From: a virus
Strand: one strand, 5' to 3'
Length of the DNA stretch: 16,103 nt
Virus genome (UHGV): UHGV-0276752
Both the position numbers and the translations under genes were made by a program. Below the pieces are notes generated by a model. The model did not search any database. It was not told the DNA's origin and saw nothing but the letters and a program-made list of their open reading frames with translations. This document shows positions 3,914 through 11,699 of this stretch, in pieces; position 1 is the stretch's first letter; the number at the start of each line of letters is the position of its first letter.

Positions 3914-4080
3914 TTGACCCAAATCGAAGTTACGAACAAGGAAGTGTCGAGCGAGCTTTAACGTGCGCTAACTGCGGTCAGAAGCTGCATGTGCTGGAAG
4001 TTCACGTGTGCTCCGATTGCTGCGCAGAACTGATGAGCGATCCGAATAGCTCAATGTACGAGGAAGAAGACGATGAGTGA
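3910..4080 (+). CDS. ninF: NinF, small Cys-rich protein
   Basis: GTG 3910 overlaps the ninE stop (GTGA). Product [56 protein letters not shown] resembles lambda NinF from memory. Alternative upstream ATG at 3868. Confidence 0.7.
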
Positions 4081-4798
4081 GTTAATAAATGGCAACGCCA
4101 TCAAAATGACAAGCATTGAAATCGCTGAGTTGGTAGAAAGCCGCCATAGCAATGTAAAAGTATCCATAGATAGATTGGTGAAGCGTGGCGTTATCAAGCC
4201 TCCTGCATTGCAGCACACTAACATAATCAATGATTTAGGTGTTATTACCGGGAAGCGTGATTTCTACGTCTTCGAAGGCGAAAAAGGTAAGCGCGATAGC
4301 ATTATTGTCGTTGCCCAGTTGTCGCCGGAATTCACCGCTCGTCTTGTTGACCGCTGGCGAGAGCTTGAAGAAGCTGCGGTTAATATCCCCAAAACGCTAC
4401 CGGAAGCGTTGCGCCTTGCTGCTGATCTTGCTGAGCAGAAAATGCAACTGGAAAACCAGCTCGCAATTGCCGCACCTAAAGTTGAGTTTGCCGATCGAGT
4501 TGGCGAGGCCAGTGGAATTTTGATTGGAAACTTTGCAAAGGTTGTTGGTATTGGTCCAAACAAACTGTTTGCGTGGATGCGCTATCACAAAATCCTTATT
4601 GCTTCAGGTGCCCGGCGCAATGTGCCAATGCAGGAATATATGGAGCGCGGCTATTTCACAGTGAAAGAAACAGCGGTCAACACAAATCACGGAATACAGA
4701 TATCGTTCACTACAAAAATCACCGGACGTGGCCAACAGTGGCTGACCAGAAAGCTGCTCGATAACGGAATGCTGAAAGTAACCGGGGAGGCTGCTTAA
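4073..4798 (+). CDS. Antirepressor-like protein: Rha-like N-terminal domain plus KilA-C/ANT C-terminal domain
   Basis: 241 aa. N-terminal region with TSIEIAELVESRHSNV and DSIIVVAQLSPEFTARLVDRWRELE (Rha/Bro-N-like). C-terminal LPEALRLAADLAEQKMQLENQLAIAAPKVEFADRV is typical of the KilA-C/ANT antirepressor domain. Start overlaps the ninF stop; stop overlaps the next start (TAATG). Confidence 0.7.
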   Translation: MSELINGNAIKMTSIEIAELVESRHSNVKVSIDRLVKRGVIKPPALQHTNIINDLGVITGKRDFYVFEGEKGKRDSIIVVAQLSPEFTARLVDRWRELEEAAVNIPKTLPEALRLAADLAEQKMQLENQLAIAAPKVEFADRVGEASGILIGNFAKVVGIGPNKLFAWMRYHKILIASGARRNVPMQEYMERGYFTVKETAVNTNHGIQISFTTKITGRGQQWLTRKLLDNGMLKVTGEAA

Positions 4799-5088
4799 TG
4801 GCTAACCTACGCAAAGAAGCACGCGGCAGAGAATGCCAGGTACGTATTTACGGCGTATGCAATGGTAATCCTGAAACTACAGTTCTGGCACATTACCGGA
4901 TGGCTGGAATTTGCGGAACGGGGATGAAGCCTGAAGACCTGATCGGCGCATGGGCTTGTAGCGCGTGTCACGATGAAATCGACCGACGCACCCATAACCT
5001 CGACAACAAAGACGCCAGACTTTACCACCTCGAAGGCGTGATCAGGACGCAGGCGATACTGCTGAAGGAGGGGAAGATTAAGTCATGA
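4798..5088 (+). CDS. ybcO: YbcO-like protein (DUF1364), predicted Zn-binding nuclease of lambdoid nin regions
   Basis: MANLRKEARGRECQVRIYGVCNGNPETTVLAHYR...ACSACHDEIDRR closely resembles E. coli DLP12 YbcO as I recall it. Conserved Cys/His pattern. Confidence 0.75.
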   Translation: MANLRKEARGRECQVRIYGVCNGNPETTVLAHYRMAGICGTGMKPEDLIGAWACSACHDEIDRRTHNLDNKDARLYHLEGVIRTQAILLKEGKIKS

Positions 5089-5609
5089 ACGGTAAAAGAT
5101 ATCCAACACAAAAAGAAATCAATGAATTGTATGAATATAATAGCGAAACAGGTTTGTTTATATACAAGAGAAGAGAAAGTGTAAGAGAGTGCTGGAATTC
5201 AACATATGCCGGTAAGATTGCTGGTTCTATAGATGAAAAAGGATACGTTCGTATATCTGTAAATAAAAAAGTTTGTCGAGCTCATAGAATCGCATGGATA
5301 TCCTTTTATGGAAGTGAACCTGATGGGGAAATTGACCACATAAATGGAGTTAAAAGCGATAACAGAATATGCAATTTGCGCGTTGTAGATGATAAACAGA
5401 ACTCAAGGAACAGAAAAAAGCCTATTAATAATCGCTCTGGAGTAATGGGGGTTGCCTACTATAAGAAGAATAAAAAGTGGGGCGCATATATAAACAGTGA
5501 TAATAAAAAGATATTTCTTGGATTATACGATGACATATCTCTAGCCGTTAATGCCAGAAAATTGGCGGAATCACGATTGGGGTATCACCATAATCATGGG
5601 AGAGGATAA
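5085..5609 (+). CDS. HNH homing-type endonuclease with an AP2-like DNA-binding domain
   Basis: 174 aa. HNH core EIDHINGVKSDNRICNLRVV...QNSRNR. C-terminal GVMGVAYYKKNKKWGAYIN...GLYDDISLAVNARKLAESRLGY resembles the AP2/IENR-type domain of phage homing endonucleases. Markedly AT-rich (about 35% GC by eye, versus about 50% in flanks). Confidence 0.8.
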   Translation: MNGKRYPTQKEINELYEYNSETGLFIYKRRESVRECWNSTYAGKIAGSIDEKGYVRISVNKKVCRAHRIAWISFYGSEPDGEIDHINGVKSDNRICNLRVVDDKQNSRNRKKPINNRSGVMGVAYYKKNKKWGAYINSDNKKIFLGLYDDISLAVNARKLAESRLGYHHNHGRG

Positions 5610-5971
5610 ATGGCAGAATACAGATTCACACTTCCGTACCCACCGTCGCTGAACACCTACTGGCGAAGACGGGGAAGCCAATACTACATCAGCGATAAAG
5701 GCCAGAAATACCGAAAAGACGTCCAGCAAATCATCCGCCAACTTAAGTTAGACATTTTCACCAAATCACGACTCCGCATCAAAGTCATCGCAGACGTTCC
5801 AGACTCCCGCCGCCGCGACCTCGACAACATCCTGAAAGGTTTACTCGACTCCCTTATCCACGCCGGATTTGCGGAAGACGACGAGCAATTCGATGACATT
5901 CGCGTAATTCGTGGTGGAAAGTACCAGGCGGAAGGCTTGGAATAAAAATCACCGAACTGGAGAACGCATGA
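5610..5971 (+). pseudogene. rusA: RusA Holliday-junction resolvase with an apparent 1-nt deletion frameshift near 5911-5920
   Basis: Frame 0 (5610-5945) gives a RusA-like N-terminus (TLPYPPSLNTYW, PDSRRRDLDN) but ends ...IRVIRGGKYQAEGLE. A second frame (5912-5971) encodes WWKVPGGRLGIKITELENA, matching the canonical RusA C-terminus (KGGRLELTITEMGNE, from memory). Its stop at 5969-5971 overlaps the ninH ATG (ATGA). Repaired length would be 120 aa, equal to RusA. Confidence 0.6.
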
Positions 5972-6156
5972 ACGCCACAATTCAAACGATACCAGAGCTT
6001 CTTATCCAGACACGAGGCAATCAGACCGAAGTGGCGAGGATGCTTTCCTGCGCAAGAGGAACAGTGCTCAAGTACAACCGAGACAGCAAAGGTGAGCGTC
6101 ACGTAATAGTTAACGGCGTCCTGATGGTCAAACAGGGCAAGAGGGGAAGACGATGA
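5968..6156 (+). CDS. ninH: NinH
   Basis: ATG 5968. MNATIQTIPELLIQTRGNQTEVARMLSCARGTVLKYNRDSKGERHVIVNGVLMV resembles lambda NinH (..KTIPDMLVEAYGNQTEVARRL.CSRGTV.KY.., from memory). HTH-like. Confidence 0.75.
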   Translation: MNATIQTIPELLIQTRGNQTEVARMLSCARGTVLKYNRDSKGERHVIVNGVLMVKQGKRGRR

Positions 6157-6641
6157 GCATAAGAGAACTAAACCTCACCAAAGAACAGCAGGAGTGGCTG
6201 AATGGCTGGCTTGAACTGTGGGGCGCATGGGTTTATTCAGGTCGTCTTGAAAAGCGCATGAGCAGCGTAATAGCGAAGTTCATGGAGAGCGTAGAGCCGG
6301 GAAGAGTTATGACAAGGCCAATGTGCAATGATGATGATGGAATGTTGATTTCTCAGGTCGTCGATTCCGTCATGTACATTGACAAGAAAGCCTTTGGCAT
6401 CCTCCTCAGCTACTACGCCCATGGATCTTCCAAGCACGCCATTGCATCTTACTATCATCGTGTCGCAAGACCTCGCAAGATGTTATGCCGGGGCGGCGGG
6501 CGTATTCAAAAACCATCGCTCGCAACCTGTCGCCGGGAAGTTGACGAAATCCTCAATGCTTCGTTGTTTATGATTTACCCGGTTCTGGATAGTGCGTTTA
6601 AAAACCGGAAACGTGTAGAGAAAATTAAACATGTAGCATAG
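6153..6641 (+). CDS. Q: Late-gene antiterminator Q (P22 gene 23 / phage 82-933W Q type)
   Basis: 162 aa. ELWGAWVYSG motif and overall pattern resemble Q proteins of 82/933W/P22 type. Located between ninH and the late promoter/lysis genes. ATGA overlap with ninH. Confidence 0.8.
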   Translation: MSIRELNLTKEQQEWLNGWLELWGAWVYSGRLEKRMSSVIAKFMESVEPGRVMTRPMCNDDDGMLISQVVDSVMYIDKKAFGILLSYYAHGSSKHAIASYYHRVARPRKMLCRGGGRIQKPSLATCRREVDEILNASLFMIYPVLDSAFKNRKRVEKIKHVA

Positions 6642-6647
6642 AACGTG

Positions 6648-6682
6648 TTGACATCATTGAGCAAATGAGCAACACTATTCGC
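6648..6682 (+). promoter_or_regulatory. Candidate late promoter PR' (with expected qut region) just downstream of Q
   Basis: Perfect -35 hexamer TTGACA at 6648-6653, 7 nt after the Q stop. The -10 is not clear-cut (candidates ACACTA/CACTAT about 17-20 nt downstream). Position is as in lambda. Confidence 0.35.
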
Positions 6683-7012
6683 ATAAGCTGCCGTTAGTGA
6701 CTCTTAAGTTGCAACGGTGGCTTTTTTTGTTTGCACAACAGGTAAGAGCATTGAACCCGCAGACCTCGCGGAATTGGTGAAAGGTGCCGCGCAGTGCTCT
6801 TATCGTTGTGGTGAATGCACAGGCTGATGTGTAAGGGCAAGAATCTTTCGCTGGATTCGGTGTGGCCACGTAGCCCGCTGTAGGCAGTTGCAGCAAACCG
6901 GAGATCAGCACCGGTCGCCACAATCCAAACTGAGCCGTAGCCACTGGCTATCCTGAATTCATCAGTGATAGTTATGCTGCGGCCTTCTACACATGATCTT
7001 CGTGAAAGCGGG

Positions 7013-7050
7013 TGGCATGAGGTTGAGCTAACAACCTCCTGCCGTTTTGC
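7013..7050 (+). terminator. Rho-independent terminator candidate (tR'-like) ending the short late-leader transcript
   Basis: GGCATGAGGTTG (7013-7024), loop AGCTAA, CAACCTCCTGCC (7031-7042): a 12-bp stem with one mismatch, followed by GTTTTG. A weaker hairpin plus T7 run lies at about 6690-6730. Confidence 0.5.
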
Positions 7051-7148
7051 CCGTGCATATCGGTCACGAACAAATCTGATTACTAAACACAGTAGCCTGG
7101 ATTTGTTCTATCAGTAACCGACCATATTCCTAATTAAATAGAGCAAAT

Positions 7149-7162
7149 CCCCTTATTGGGGG
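7149..7162 (+). promoter_or_regulatory. sdi-type stem-loop (CCCC-TTATT-GGGGG) upstream of the S dual start
   Basis: Hairpin 7-20 nt upstream of ATG-AAG-ATG. In lambda this structure sets the S107/S105 initiation ratio. Confidence 0.6.
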
Positions 7163-7168
7163 TAAGAC

Positions 7169-7492
7169 ATGAAGATGCCAGAAAAAAATGACCTGTTAGC
7201 CGCCATTCTCGCGGCAAAGGAACAAGGCATCGGGGCAATCCTTGCGTTTGCAATGGCGTACCTTCGCGGCAGATATAATGGCGGTGCGTTTACAAAAACA
7301 GTAATCGACGCAACGATGTGCGCCATTATCGCCTGGTTCATTCGTGACCTTCTCGACTTCGCCGGACTAAGTAGCAATCTCGCTTATATAACGAGCGTGT
7401 TTATCGGCTACATCGGTACTGACTCGATTGGTTCGCTTATCAAACGCTTCGCTGCTAAAAAAGCCGGAGTAGAAGATGGTGGAAATCAATAA
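7169..7492 (+). CDS. S: Class I holin S (S107 antiholin from ATG 7169; S105 holin from ATG 7175)
   Basis: [39 protein letters not shown]... is near-identical to lambda S as I recall it (one or two substitutions). Three predicted transmembrane segments; Met-Lys-Met dual start. Confidence 0.95.
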
Positions 7493-9249: not shown

Positions 9250-9601
9250 CCATTCCAAAGCCCATCTACTGGTGGGCTTGATAATGAAACCGTGATTTAC
9301 ATCCCCACAATCCGGGTATGTAAAAGATAGTTCAGGCGAGAACAGATTTAACTAAATCTGTGCACCGCCAGTTACAGCAGTACAGCGAAACAACCCAAGC
9401 CAGTAAGTGGGGAAATAACACTGGCAGCCACTGAAAGATGAACCTCCAGCCTTATGGCAAAAAAGATTCTTTGTGGTGGCGGACTGATGGAAAGACATCG
9501 GTTATTGCAGAGATCATTCAATGAGTGGTCTCGACAATGGCTTATACCCTACACGGGATAACTTAACTGATATCCCTTTTAACGGATAAACGGAGCCAAC
9601 A

Positions 9602-9844
9602 ATGGCAGAGATTATTCCCATGACTGAAGAACAGAAATTCCAGTTAGAGATTTACAAGCTGGTCATGAACCAGAACGCAGCTGCAGAGGAAGCATTTCAG
9701 TTCATTGGCACTGACGAACTGAAGCTTGAGCTATTCAAAATTCACTTCCAGTCAGGCGGCGCTAATTCAGATATCACGATCCGCACATTCGAAGCGGTGC
9801 GTAAATCGAAGGAAGCGTTAGACCTGTTCACCACCGGAGCATAA
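9602..9844 (+). CDS. Conserved small acidic protein (orf80 equivalent of P22-like phages), function unknown
   Basis: 80 aa ORF directly upstream of small terminase, with SD GGAG at 9592-9595. The position and the size match orf80 of P22. Confidence 0.6.
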   Translation: MAEIIPMTEEQKFQLEIYKLVMNQNAAAEEAFQFIGTDELKLELFKIHFQSGGANSDITIRTFEAVRKSKEALDLFTTGA

Positions 9845-9846
9845 AC

Positions 9847-10287: not shown

Positions 10288-11699
10288 CCTCGATTAATCC
10301 TATCTTTGAACCGTTCATTGAGGCGCATCGCTACAAAGTCGCCAAAGGCGGTCGAGGTAGCGGTAAGTCATGGGCAATTGCGAGACTGCTTGTTGAAGCG
10401 GCGCGTCGGCAGCCAGTGCGTATTCTCTGCGCTCGTGAACTGCAAAACAGTATCAGCGATTCGGTAATCCGGTTGCTTGAAGATACCATCGAGCGTGAAG
10501 GATATTCGGCTGAGTTTGAAATTCAGCGTTCAATGATTCGTCATCTCGGAACGAATGCTGAGTTCATGTTCTACGGCATCAAAAACAACCCGACGAAGAT
10601 TAAATCGCTAGAAGGCATTGATATCTGCTGGGTGGAAGAAGCGGAAGCGGTAACGAAGGAATCATGGGATATCCTGATACCAACCATCCGTAAGCCGTTC
10701 TCTGAAATATGGGTGAGCTTTAACCCGAAGAACATACTCGACGATACCTATCAGCGGTTCGTCGTAAATCCTCCTGATGATATTTGTCTGCTGACGGTGA
10801 ACTACACCGACAATCCGCACTTTCCTGAAGTTCTCCGTCTGGAGATGGAAGAGTGTAAGCGCAGAAACCCGACACTGTATCGTCACATCTGGCTTGGTGA
10901 GCCAGTAAGCGCAAGTGATATGGCAATCATCAAACGTGAATGGCTTGAAGCCGCAACCGATGCGCACAAGAAACTCGGATGGAAAGCGAAAGGCGCTGTT
11001 GTCTCTGCGCATGACCCGTCAGATACAGGACCAGATGCTAAAGGTTATGCATCGCGTCACGGTTCGGTAGTTAAGCGCATTGCCGAAGGTCTGCTGATGG
11101 ACATCAACGAGGGTGCTGACTGGGCTACTTCGCTGGCGATTGAAGACGGTGCTGACCATTACCTGTGGGATGGTGATGGTGTTGGTGCCGGGCTACGCAG
11201 ACAGACAACGGAAGCGTTCTCCGGCAAGAAAATCACCGCCACGATGTTCAAGGGCAGCGAATCGCCATTCGATGAAGATGCACCGTATCAGGCCGGAGCA
11301 TGGGCCGATGAAGTCGTACAGGGCGACAACGTTCGCACTATTGGCGATGTGTTCCGTAATAAGCGAGCGCAATTCTATTACGCGCTGGCTGACAGGCTGT
11401 ATCTGACATATCGGGCGGTTGTTCACGGTGAGTATGCAGACCCCGACGACATGCTGAGTTTCGACAAAGAAGCGATAGGCGAGAAGATGCTGGAGAAGCT
11501 GTTTGCAGAACTGACGCAGATTCAGCGCAAATTCAATAACAACGGGAAGCTGGAGCTAATGACTAAGGTCGAAATGAAGCAGAAGCTCGGTATTCCATCT
11601 CCTAACCTGGCTGATGCGCTGATGATGTGTATGCATTGCCCGGAGTCGGCTGCGCAACCCGACTATTCCAGTTACTCAATTCCTTGTGGTGTAGGTTGA
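10284..11699 (+). CDS. Terminase large subunit (Sf6 gp2-like, ATPase plus nuclease)
   Basis: 471 aa. Walker A GGRGSGKS, Walker B-like DICWVEE, C-terminal RNase H-like nuclease region. N-terminal sequence matches Sf6 gp2 as I recall it. Confidence 0.9.
   Translation: MTSINPIFEPFIEAHRYKVAKGGRGSGKSWAIARLLVEAARRQPVRILCARELQNSISDSVIRLLEDTIEREGYSAEFEIQRSMIRHLGTNAEFMFYGIKNNPTKIKSLEGIDICWVEEAEAVTKESWDILIPTIRKPFSEIWVSFNPKNILDDTYQRFVVNPPDDICLLTVNYTDNPHFPEVLRLEMEECKRRNPTLYRHIWLGEPVSASDMAIIKREWLEAATDAHKKLGWKAKGAVVSAHDPSDTGPDAKGYASRHGSVVKRIAEGLLMDINEGADWATSLAIEDGADHYLWDGDGVGAGLRRQTTEAFSGKKITATMFKGSESPFDEDAPYQAGAWADEVVQGDNVRTIGDVFRNKRAQFYYALADRLYLTYRAVVHGEYADPDDMLSFDKEAIGEKMLEKLFAELTQIQRKFNNNGKLELMTKVEMKQKLGIPSPNLADALMMCMHCPESAAQPDYSSYSIPCGVG

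Follow-up and report, generated by a model that had tools for sequence, protein, structure and literature searches.

The virus genome UHGV-0276752, a stretch of 16,103 nt that was analysed at its full length (hereafter the window), comes from a P22-like lambdoid prophage in which a small AT-rich gene for an HNH endonuclease lies between ybcO and rusA. Comparison of alleles that carry this gene (occupied) with alleles that lack it (empty) suggests that positions 5092-5649 are probably a free-standing homing-endonuclease cassette at the ybcO/rusA overlap, and the family assignment of the protein and the standing of the cassette as a discrete mobile module are held with much more confidence than homing. 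The HNH gene is a separate open reading frame (ORF) between the conserved ybcO and rusA, outside any intron or intein. As the original prediction had described, its ATG (5085-5087) overlaps the ybcO TGA as ATGA and its TAA lies directly 5' of the rusA ATG at 5610. The features of the cassette are as follows.

5085-5609, + strand: HNH-AP2 endonuclease gene, 174 amino acids, GC content 0.354 (ORF, composition, PHROGs, AlphaFold model)
5085-5091, + strand: left junction ATGAACG (alignment of the window and occupied locus L001 with empty loci L002, L003 and L005)
5277-5408, + strand: HNH_3 (beta-beta-alpha-Me) catalytic core, residues 65-108 (Pfam PF13392, I-HmuI alignment, Foldseek)
5436-5579, + strand: predicted AP2-type DNA-binding domain, residues ~118-165 (Pfam matches of homologues, model fold)
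5598-5612, + strand: new rusA translation signals, namely GGGAGAGG at 5598-5605 within the last HNH codons, TAA at 5607-5609 and ATG at 5610-5612 (read from the sequence)
5613-5649, + strand: recoded rusA 5' end linked to the cassette (alignment, allele frequencies)

Occupied and empty alleles at the ybcO/rusA overlap

The HNH gene was present in 33 of 5426 complete E. coli genomes, with every copy directly upstream of rusA and one of them truncated by IS1. A query in which ybcO was joined to rusA matched 921 E. coli genomes (counted at ≥80% coverage), and in ~890 of these the two genes overlap directly and are insert-free, the empty alleles among the matches listed each giving one contiguous alignment to the joined query; occupancy of the site is ~3-4%. 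A similar picture was obtained in IMG/VR, with 19 occupied contigs versus at least 569 stretches encoding YbcO relatives, and with 78 of the 80 loci examined being empty. According to their gene tables, the cultured phages CUS-3 and HK629 have an empty ybcO/rusA junction, other cultured lambdoid phages have the same nin backbone, and a DNA search with the HNH gene against 50,697 phage records returned no match. Insert-free relatives had been proposed as the means to define the insertion point, and they placed it at the ybcO/rusA ATGA overlap.

Empty alleles read ...AAGCC ATGA ACGAATATCAGTTTGTG... across the overlap (...GAAGATTAAGCCATGAACGAATATCAGTTTGTGCTTCCATACCCGCCGTCGGTGAA... in CUS-3 or HK629), whereas the occupied allele reads ...AAGTC ATGAACG GTAAAAG...(HNH gene)...GGGAGAGGATAA ATGGCAGAATACAGATTCACA CTTCC..., and this junction was the same in 20 of 20 occupied alleles. 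The seven nucleotides ATGAACG at the left junction are the same bases as the rusA start of insert-free alleles, so the HNH ORF appears to use the resident rusA start codon together with its coupling to ybcO, and because ybcO and rusA overlap by ATGA in empty alleles, the inserted unit also replaces the first rusA codons. The GGGAGAGG-TAA-ATG signals at the 3' end of the HNH gene are missing in empty alleles, where rusA starts at its ATGA overlap with ybcO, and we infer that GGGAGAGG acts as the ribosome-binding site for rusA. No copy of the empty-junction sequence was detected in the window even with 3 mismatches allowed, consistent with an occupied genome lacking the putative target. The earlier claim of a precise insertion between ybcO and rusA therefore stands with respect to one exact site (33 versus ~890 genomes), but not with respect to its limits, as there is no space between the two genes and the unit includes rusA nucleotides up to 40.

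Other rearrangements were also observed at this position. Six of the 80 IMG/VR loci L088-L167 have a near-identical ybcO followed by an unrelated, DLP12-type rusA (MKTYRIKLPWPPS...), so the ybcO/rusA overlap seems to be a general mosaic exchange point in lambdoid phages. In E. coli 1008S19 (NZ_CP147050.1; locus L004, 3248-4438), IS1A adjoins a 5'-truncated HNH copy, ybcO and the upstream nin genes are gone, and the order is cII, IS1, partial HNH gene and rusA.

The cassette extends into the 5' end of rusA

Occupied and typical empty alleles differ at 14 positions in rusA nt 1-40 and are essentially the same over the other 320 nt of the gene and over ninH. At rusA nt 4-21 (5613-5630), 11 of 18 positions are unlike every empty allele and convert MNEYQFV to MAEYRFT, while at nt 27, 33 and 40 all occupied alleles share bases that few empty alleles have. 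All 14 differentiated sites fall within nt 4-40, with a frequency of 1.0 in 24 occupied alleles versus 0-0.16 in 75 empty alleles; no other ybcO or rusA site showed an occupied-empty frequency difference ≥0.5 in the same comparison, and the mean difference over the rest of the two genes was mostly 0.01-0.04. Polymorphisms that also occur in empty alleles were found among occupied ones as near to the cassette as position -2 on one side and rusA nt 45 on the other. One empty allele (E. coli 980-2; locus L005, 1480-1520) matches occupied alleles at rusA nt 27, 33 and 40 and has T at -2, but lacks the nt 4-21 recoding, so only the nt 4-21 changes are exclusive to HNH carriers. A second empty allele of this rare type was found in strain B25FEP (hit H145), and such alleles may be the ancestral recipient type or a product of cassette loss.

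The recoded tract was confined to HNH carriers (33/33 E. coli genomes, 19/19 IMG/VR contigs and 5/5 metagenome contigs) and was preceded by the HNH 3' end in every match. No HNH-less carrier or donor of the recoded rusA start was detected with a 56-nt query in E. coli genomes or with an exact 21-mer in IMG/VR, and a degenerate pattern at the protein level likewise revealed no carrier without the HNH gene in JGI metagenomes. Taken together, these alignments indicate that the mobile unit is larger than the ORF, taking the original start of rusA and bringing a rusA 5' end that is recoded as far as nt 40. A GCC-box-like CCGCCG of most empty alleles is CCACCG in occupied ones, the relevance of which is speculative.

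A near-uniform cassette on diverged backgrounds

Among 20 occupied alleles, nucleotide diversity (pi) was 0.0071 for the HNH gene, 0.042 for ybcO and 0.026 for rusA, that is, 4-6 times lower in the cassette than in its immediate flanks, and sequence outside ybcO and ninH was unalignable among the occupied phages. The cassette sits behind five upstream contexts and ahead of two Q types, and the regions ~3 kb to either side formed 13 distinct clusters for 18 loci and 9 for 15 loci. The ybcO alleles were equally diverse in occupied and empty phages, the empty alleles having been picked for YbcO similarity to the window. Occupied ybcO haplotypes can be the same as empty ones (L013 = L111 and L023 = L108) and up to 23 nt from other occupied ones. 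The HNH reading frame was intact in all 24 copies examined, in which 17 codons varied, 11 by synonymous changes only and 6 with a change of amino acid. Near-uniformity and selective maintenance, on many backgrounds that have diverged from one another, are consistent with a cassette that was spread recently by recombination.

The protein is predicted to be an I-HmuI-like HNH_3 nuclease with an AP2 domain

The HNH protein matched PF13392 (HNH_3) at residues 65-108 with 60.6 bits (cut-off 24.8, E = 1.1e-16), a family also matched by all 75 aligned homologues, and it matched phrog_99 (HNH endonuclease) in PHROGs over its full length (5.4e-63). A phmmer search against solved structures returned I-HmuI (1u3e, E = 0.0097) as the sole significant relative, and in this alignment D84/H85, N97 and N106 of the HNH protein correspond to D74/H75, N87 and N96 of I-HmuI, which reportedly belong to its catalytic and metal-binding residues. 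Across the 75 homologues, H67, D84, H85, D92, N97 and N109 were invariant and N106 nearly so. The protein is thus predicted to be an HNH_3 nuclease of the I-HmuI type whose catalytic motif is intact, in line with the original prediction of an HNH nuclease.

For the C-terminal half, the protein's own Pfam score for AP2 (PF00847) was 15.8 bits, under the cut-off of 33.3 (E = 0.018), while 35 of the 75 full-length-aligned homologues matched PF00847 (best 1.5e-11). An AlphaFold model built on the 75-homologue alignment had a predicted local distance difference test score (pLDDT) of 95.2, and its C-terminus consists of strands 123-126, 131-138 and 141-148 followed by a helix at 151-165. In a Foldseek search with this model, I-HmuI (1u3e) was the top match in the PDB (E = 3.6e-4, probability 1.00), with a global TM-score of only 0.42 because the C-terminal domains differ; next came the plant AP2 domains of TEM1 (7et5 and 7et4), WRI1 and ERF1, of which ERF1 (1gcc) superposed on the model with a root-mean-square deviation of 1.2 Å over 50 columns. 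The AP2 domain of the original prediction was thereby supported, the assignment resting on homologues and on a model with a pLDDT of 95 rather than on the protein's own sub-threshold score. NCBIfam contained no family for the HNH protein, and the sole PADLOC match was a generic 'homing endonuclease' model, with no other defence-system match. I-HmuI-like HNH_3 nucleases make up group 2 of the His-Me fingers (PMC5714182), and the combination of HNH_3 and AP2 is a recognised homing endonuclease architecture (PMC10448857, PMC5714182).

Composition, relatives and origin of the cassette

In agreement with the original prediction, sliding windows showed that the HNH ORF is lower in GC content (0.354) than the left 1 kb (0.490), the right 1 kb (0.500) and the whole window (0.490); no other 525-nt stretch in the 16.1-kb window has as low a GC content (z = -6.2 versus all those lying clear of the ORF), and its GC content at third codon positions (0.30) is below that of the neighbouring genes (0.48-0.60). 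The Lys/Asn-rich composition was likewise borne out (10.3% Lys and 9.8% Asn versus 6-7% and 2-5% in the neighbours). The two outcomes named beforehand as speaking against a foreign insert, a GC content like that of the flanks and a gene shared by all homologous prophages, did not appear, as the GC content differs from the flanks and most homologous prophages are without the gene.

In a collection of 5.8 billion proteins, the one close match was an E. coli cluster of 145 members with 98% identity, and none of those after it was above ~50% over the full length. IMG/VR and phage genomes showed the same identity gap: outside E. coli prophages, the closest relatives are ≤51% identical over the full length, and no homologue above 60% identity was found among phage proteins. 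Members of the HNH-AP2 family were found at 5673 places in 3557 phage records, and a scan of genome contigs gave a single match (41% identity) in a Kiritimatiellae metagenome-assembled genome. A Symbiopectobacterium contig (JBPETA010000371.1; locus L187, 143-1055) has ybcO (81% amino acid identity) and, overlapping it by ATGA in the same way, an HNH orthologue with ~74% amino acid identity and MNGK as its N-terminus. This orthologue is pseudogenised, being split and truncated beside two copies of GGCTTTGTTGAATAAAT, which we take to resemble IS903-type ends. Its GC content is 0.40 versus 0.57 for the adjacent ybcO, so low GC appears to be a trait of the family and is not by itself a sign of recency. 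The claim of a recent acquisition had been drawn from low GC and Lys/Asn-rich codon usage; for a recent arrival in E. coli phages, the low diversity of the cassette (pi = 0.0071) is the stronger argument.

Two paralogues with 44% identity were found in lambdoid phages. HK629 gp62 (L193, 3983-4495) lies between pR' and the holin gene, and that of IMG/VR contig 3300045988_022724 (L028, 3744-4247) lies ~3.2 kb downstream of rusA on a contig that also has the rusA-linked cassette. No distant family member adjoins rusA or ybcO; L028 was considered as such a case and rejected, as it proved to be an occupied contig of the E. coli type whose beginning is missing. The donor was likely a diverged lambdoid phage with a ybcO-HNH-rusA order, which would explain the foreign rusA start, and no donor phage turned up in the searches for this start in E. 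coli genomes, IMG/VR and JGI metagenomes.

A homing model and the alternatives

If the cassette is a homing element, the HNH gene would be read from the delayed-early nin transcript, and its translation would use the start codon and the ybcO-coupled initiation that serve rusA in empty phages. No promoter or terminator signal stands out (a scan of 4000-7200 gave none above chance), so the gene is presumably expressed from the nin transcript by translational coupling; the predicted RNA fold of the HNH/rusA junction was also unexceptional (z = -0.11). The 3' end of the HNH gene would bring a new Shine-Dalgarno sequence and ATG that keep up RusA production. When occupied and empty lambdoid genomes replicate in one cell, by co-infection or by induction in a polylysogen, the enzyme would nick or cut the conserved empty junction (...AAGYC ATGAACGAATATCAGTTTGTGCTTCC...), and repair templated on the occupied genome would install the cassette, the occupied allele being immune because the insert divides its site in two and the sequence of rusA nt 4-40 is recoded. 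In its fullest form, which we put forward only tentatively, the model holds that the cassette homes actively in temperate lambdoid phages and takes its own immunity determinant along: the enzyme would target the conserved ybcO/rusA overlap, and the replacement start and the recoded first 7-13 rusA codons would block cutting while keeping RusA functional. Such an element would spread mainly via encounters between prophages or between a prophage and a superinfecting phage.

Several observations weigh against homing. Cleavage and targeting by the enzyme are predictions from sequence features, and enzymes of the I-HmuI type reportedly nick one strand, which triggers gene conversion less strongly than a double-strand break does. 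That rusA nt 4-40 are perfectly linked to the HNH gene could equally arise without selection for immunity, since a tract with 11 of 18 positions changed is too diverged for crossovers and would stay linked to any insert. An occupancy of a few percent is not expected of a highly efficient drive, no hitch-hiking or conversion gradient was seen past rusA nt 40 among the 24 occupied and 75 empty alleles, and ordinary mosaic recombination of lambdoid phages also tends to break at gene boundaries. The selection of empty alleles by YbcO similarity, moreover, biases their ybcO diversity low. Finally, free-standing endonucleases often cut away from their insertion site (PMC2988022), so the target need not be the ybcO/rusA junction.

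Some of these points would equally suit a passive mosaic module, that is, an accessory HNH gene moved by homologous recombination in conserved flanks whose nuclease, if active, has another substrate and does not spread itself. Lambdoid nin regions are highly mosaic, as the DLP12-type rusA behind ybcO and the unalignable sequence past ybcO and ninH illustrate, and both the low occupancy and the lack of a gradient past nt 40 are in keeping with such a module. It is a real alternative, which we nevertheless regard as less likely than homing, because the cassette is 4-6 times less diverse than its immediate flanks, the same site is filled in a distant genus (Symbiopectobacterium), and the replacement expression signals and recoded rusA start are as expected of an element shaped by invading that site; homing endonucleases are, in addition, known members of the protein's family (PMC5714182).

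The evidence for homing, including the intact and constrained ORF and the conserved empty site in competitors, would also serve an exclusion weapon, in which the nuclease is kept for the benefit of the phage, cuts cassette-less lambdoid genomes and excludes their markers, with gene spread as a side effect. Many E. coli genomes have several places matching the window region (up to 5 per genome), so encounters between such prophages are plausible, and in T-even phages free-standing endonucleases are known to cause marker exclusion (PMC2988022). The two readings are inseparable by sequence data and not mutually exclusive; there is, however, no sign of a benefit and the cassette is rare, and we consider exclusion as the main function improbable. 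A role as a partner of YbcO, RusA or NinB/Orf, or as a terminase-associated HNH protein for packaging, would agree with the position of the gene inside the nin recombination cluster and its translational coupling to ybcO and rusA, and HNH proteins do assist terminases in HK97-like phages. It is nonetheless very improbable, given that ~96% of phages with the same ybcO-rusA pair, viable cultured ones included, are without the HNH gene, that distant homologues are not beside rusA or ybcO, and that the architecture is HNH_3 plus AP2, different from that of the HK97 terminase helper. A helper of the HK97 gp74 type was rejected specifically, as the gene lies 4.2 kb upstream of the small terminase gene and the head has a P22-like portal and a Terminase_3 large subunit. 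Homing thus remains our preferred reading of the cassette.

Genomic context and the rusA frameshift

The genes around the cassette are the following.

4798-5088, + strand: ybcO (DUF1364, putative His-Me-finger nuclease), upstream flank (Pfam YbcO, 2.3e-44)
5610-5945, + strand: rusA (Holliday-junction resolvase), shortened to 111 amino acids in the window (Pfam RusA, 9.5e-16)
5968-6156, + strand: ninH, downstream context outside the cassette (Pfam Phage_NinH, 4.2e-24)

The gene order in the window is cII, replication genes with a DnaB-type helicase, ninB, a KilAC antirepressor gene, ybcO, the HNH ORF, rusA, ninH and Q, with lysis genes, Rha, terminase and a P22-type portal 3' of Q; no tRNA genes were found in the window. 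YbcO/DUF1364 is labelled 'HNH endonuclease' in PHROGs (phrog_131) and has been classed as a His-Me finger (PMC5714182), and if so, two unrelated His-Me-finger genes stand back to back at this locus. The occupied prophage of E. coli KCJ3K291 (L001) has two more annotated HNH endonuclease genes (529-1329 and 10884-11381), one between cII and the replication genes and the other just upstream of the small terminase gene. The latter had no tblastn match in the window (E ≤ 0.01). Positions 9250-9846 of the window (~600 nt, from the Rha-family gene to the putative small terminase gene) contain no ORF ≥90 amino acids, and the matching interval in L001 contains an HNH gene.

The HNH gene had also been described as lying directly upstream of a frameshifted rusA, and the frameshift is indeed present: rusA in the window lacks one T between 5916 and 5917 (CGTGGTG^GAAAG, with CGTGGTGTGAAAG in relatives), whereas RusA of relatives has 120 amino acids and ends at a TGA that overlaps the ninH ATG. 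This 1-nt deletion was found in 0 of 829 E. coli genomes matching the segment (best match 98.6%, the difference being the gap) and in none of the loci compared, 56 of which carry the intact motif. The frameshift is therefore either a private mutation or a sequencing error, and because it is private to the window, a link between it and the cassette was rejected.

Discussion

The closest solved relative of the HNH protein, I-HmuI of Bacillus phage SPO1, shares an N-terminal beta region followed by the beta-beta-alpha-Me core, with the catalytic D-H...N...N aligned. The two proteins are ~22% identical, and I-HmuI lies in an intron of a DNA polymerase gene, whereas the window protein is free-standing and has a predicted AP2 domain in place of C-terminal DNA-binding modules that are reportedly helical, of the helix-turn-helix kind, in I-HmuI. 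The architecture is closer to that of the HNH-AP2 genes of phages, cyanobacteria and protists (such as 'IPA-HNH' of ICP1), which combine an N-terminal HNH with a C-terminal AP2 domain, are free-standing in phage genomes and often occur in several copies per phage record. Such HNH-AP2 homing endonuclease genes were described by Magnani et al. 2004, a study cited in PMC10448857 and PMC5714182. The members described so far come mostly from virulent phages, whereas the present lineage resides in the nin region of temperate, lambdoid prophages. The architecture and the lambdoid setting are shared, at 44% identity, by HK629 gp62 and the second HNH protein of 3300045988_022724, both of which occupy other insertion sites.

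In its genomic arrangement, the cassette resembles the 'intronless homing' genes segF, segG and mobE of T4 (PMC2988022, PMC2790892), which likewise lie between conserved genes, use upstream signals of host genes and show presence/absence polymorphism, with an adjacent conserved gene that differs between occupied and empty genomes, features described for free-standing homing endonucleases (PMC2988022). For the T4 enzymes, cleavage, co-conversion and marker exclusion were shown by experiment, while the activity of the present cassette is predicted from sequence; the cassette also differs in having no intergenic space, in taking its neighbour's start and in bringing a replacement start and recoded codons.

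The cassette is a new lineage of a well-known kind, and its biology holds no surprise. Most of what has been established about free-standing homing endonucleases comes from virulent T-even phages, and the ybcO/rusA cassette is a well-delimited candidate in temperate E. coli prophages: its site is known to the nucleotide, its limits are defined, hundreds of natural empty alleles (those of CUS-3 and HK629 included) could serve as substrates, and each of the 14 linked substitutions could be assayed for resistance on its own. It also illustrates how an element may enter two overlapping genes harmlessly, by taking over the downstream start and bringing a new one. If immunity does travel with the cassette, it would provide a tractable lambda-like homing system with natural sensitive, resistant and possibly intermediate (L005-type) alleles.

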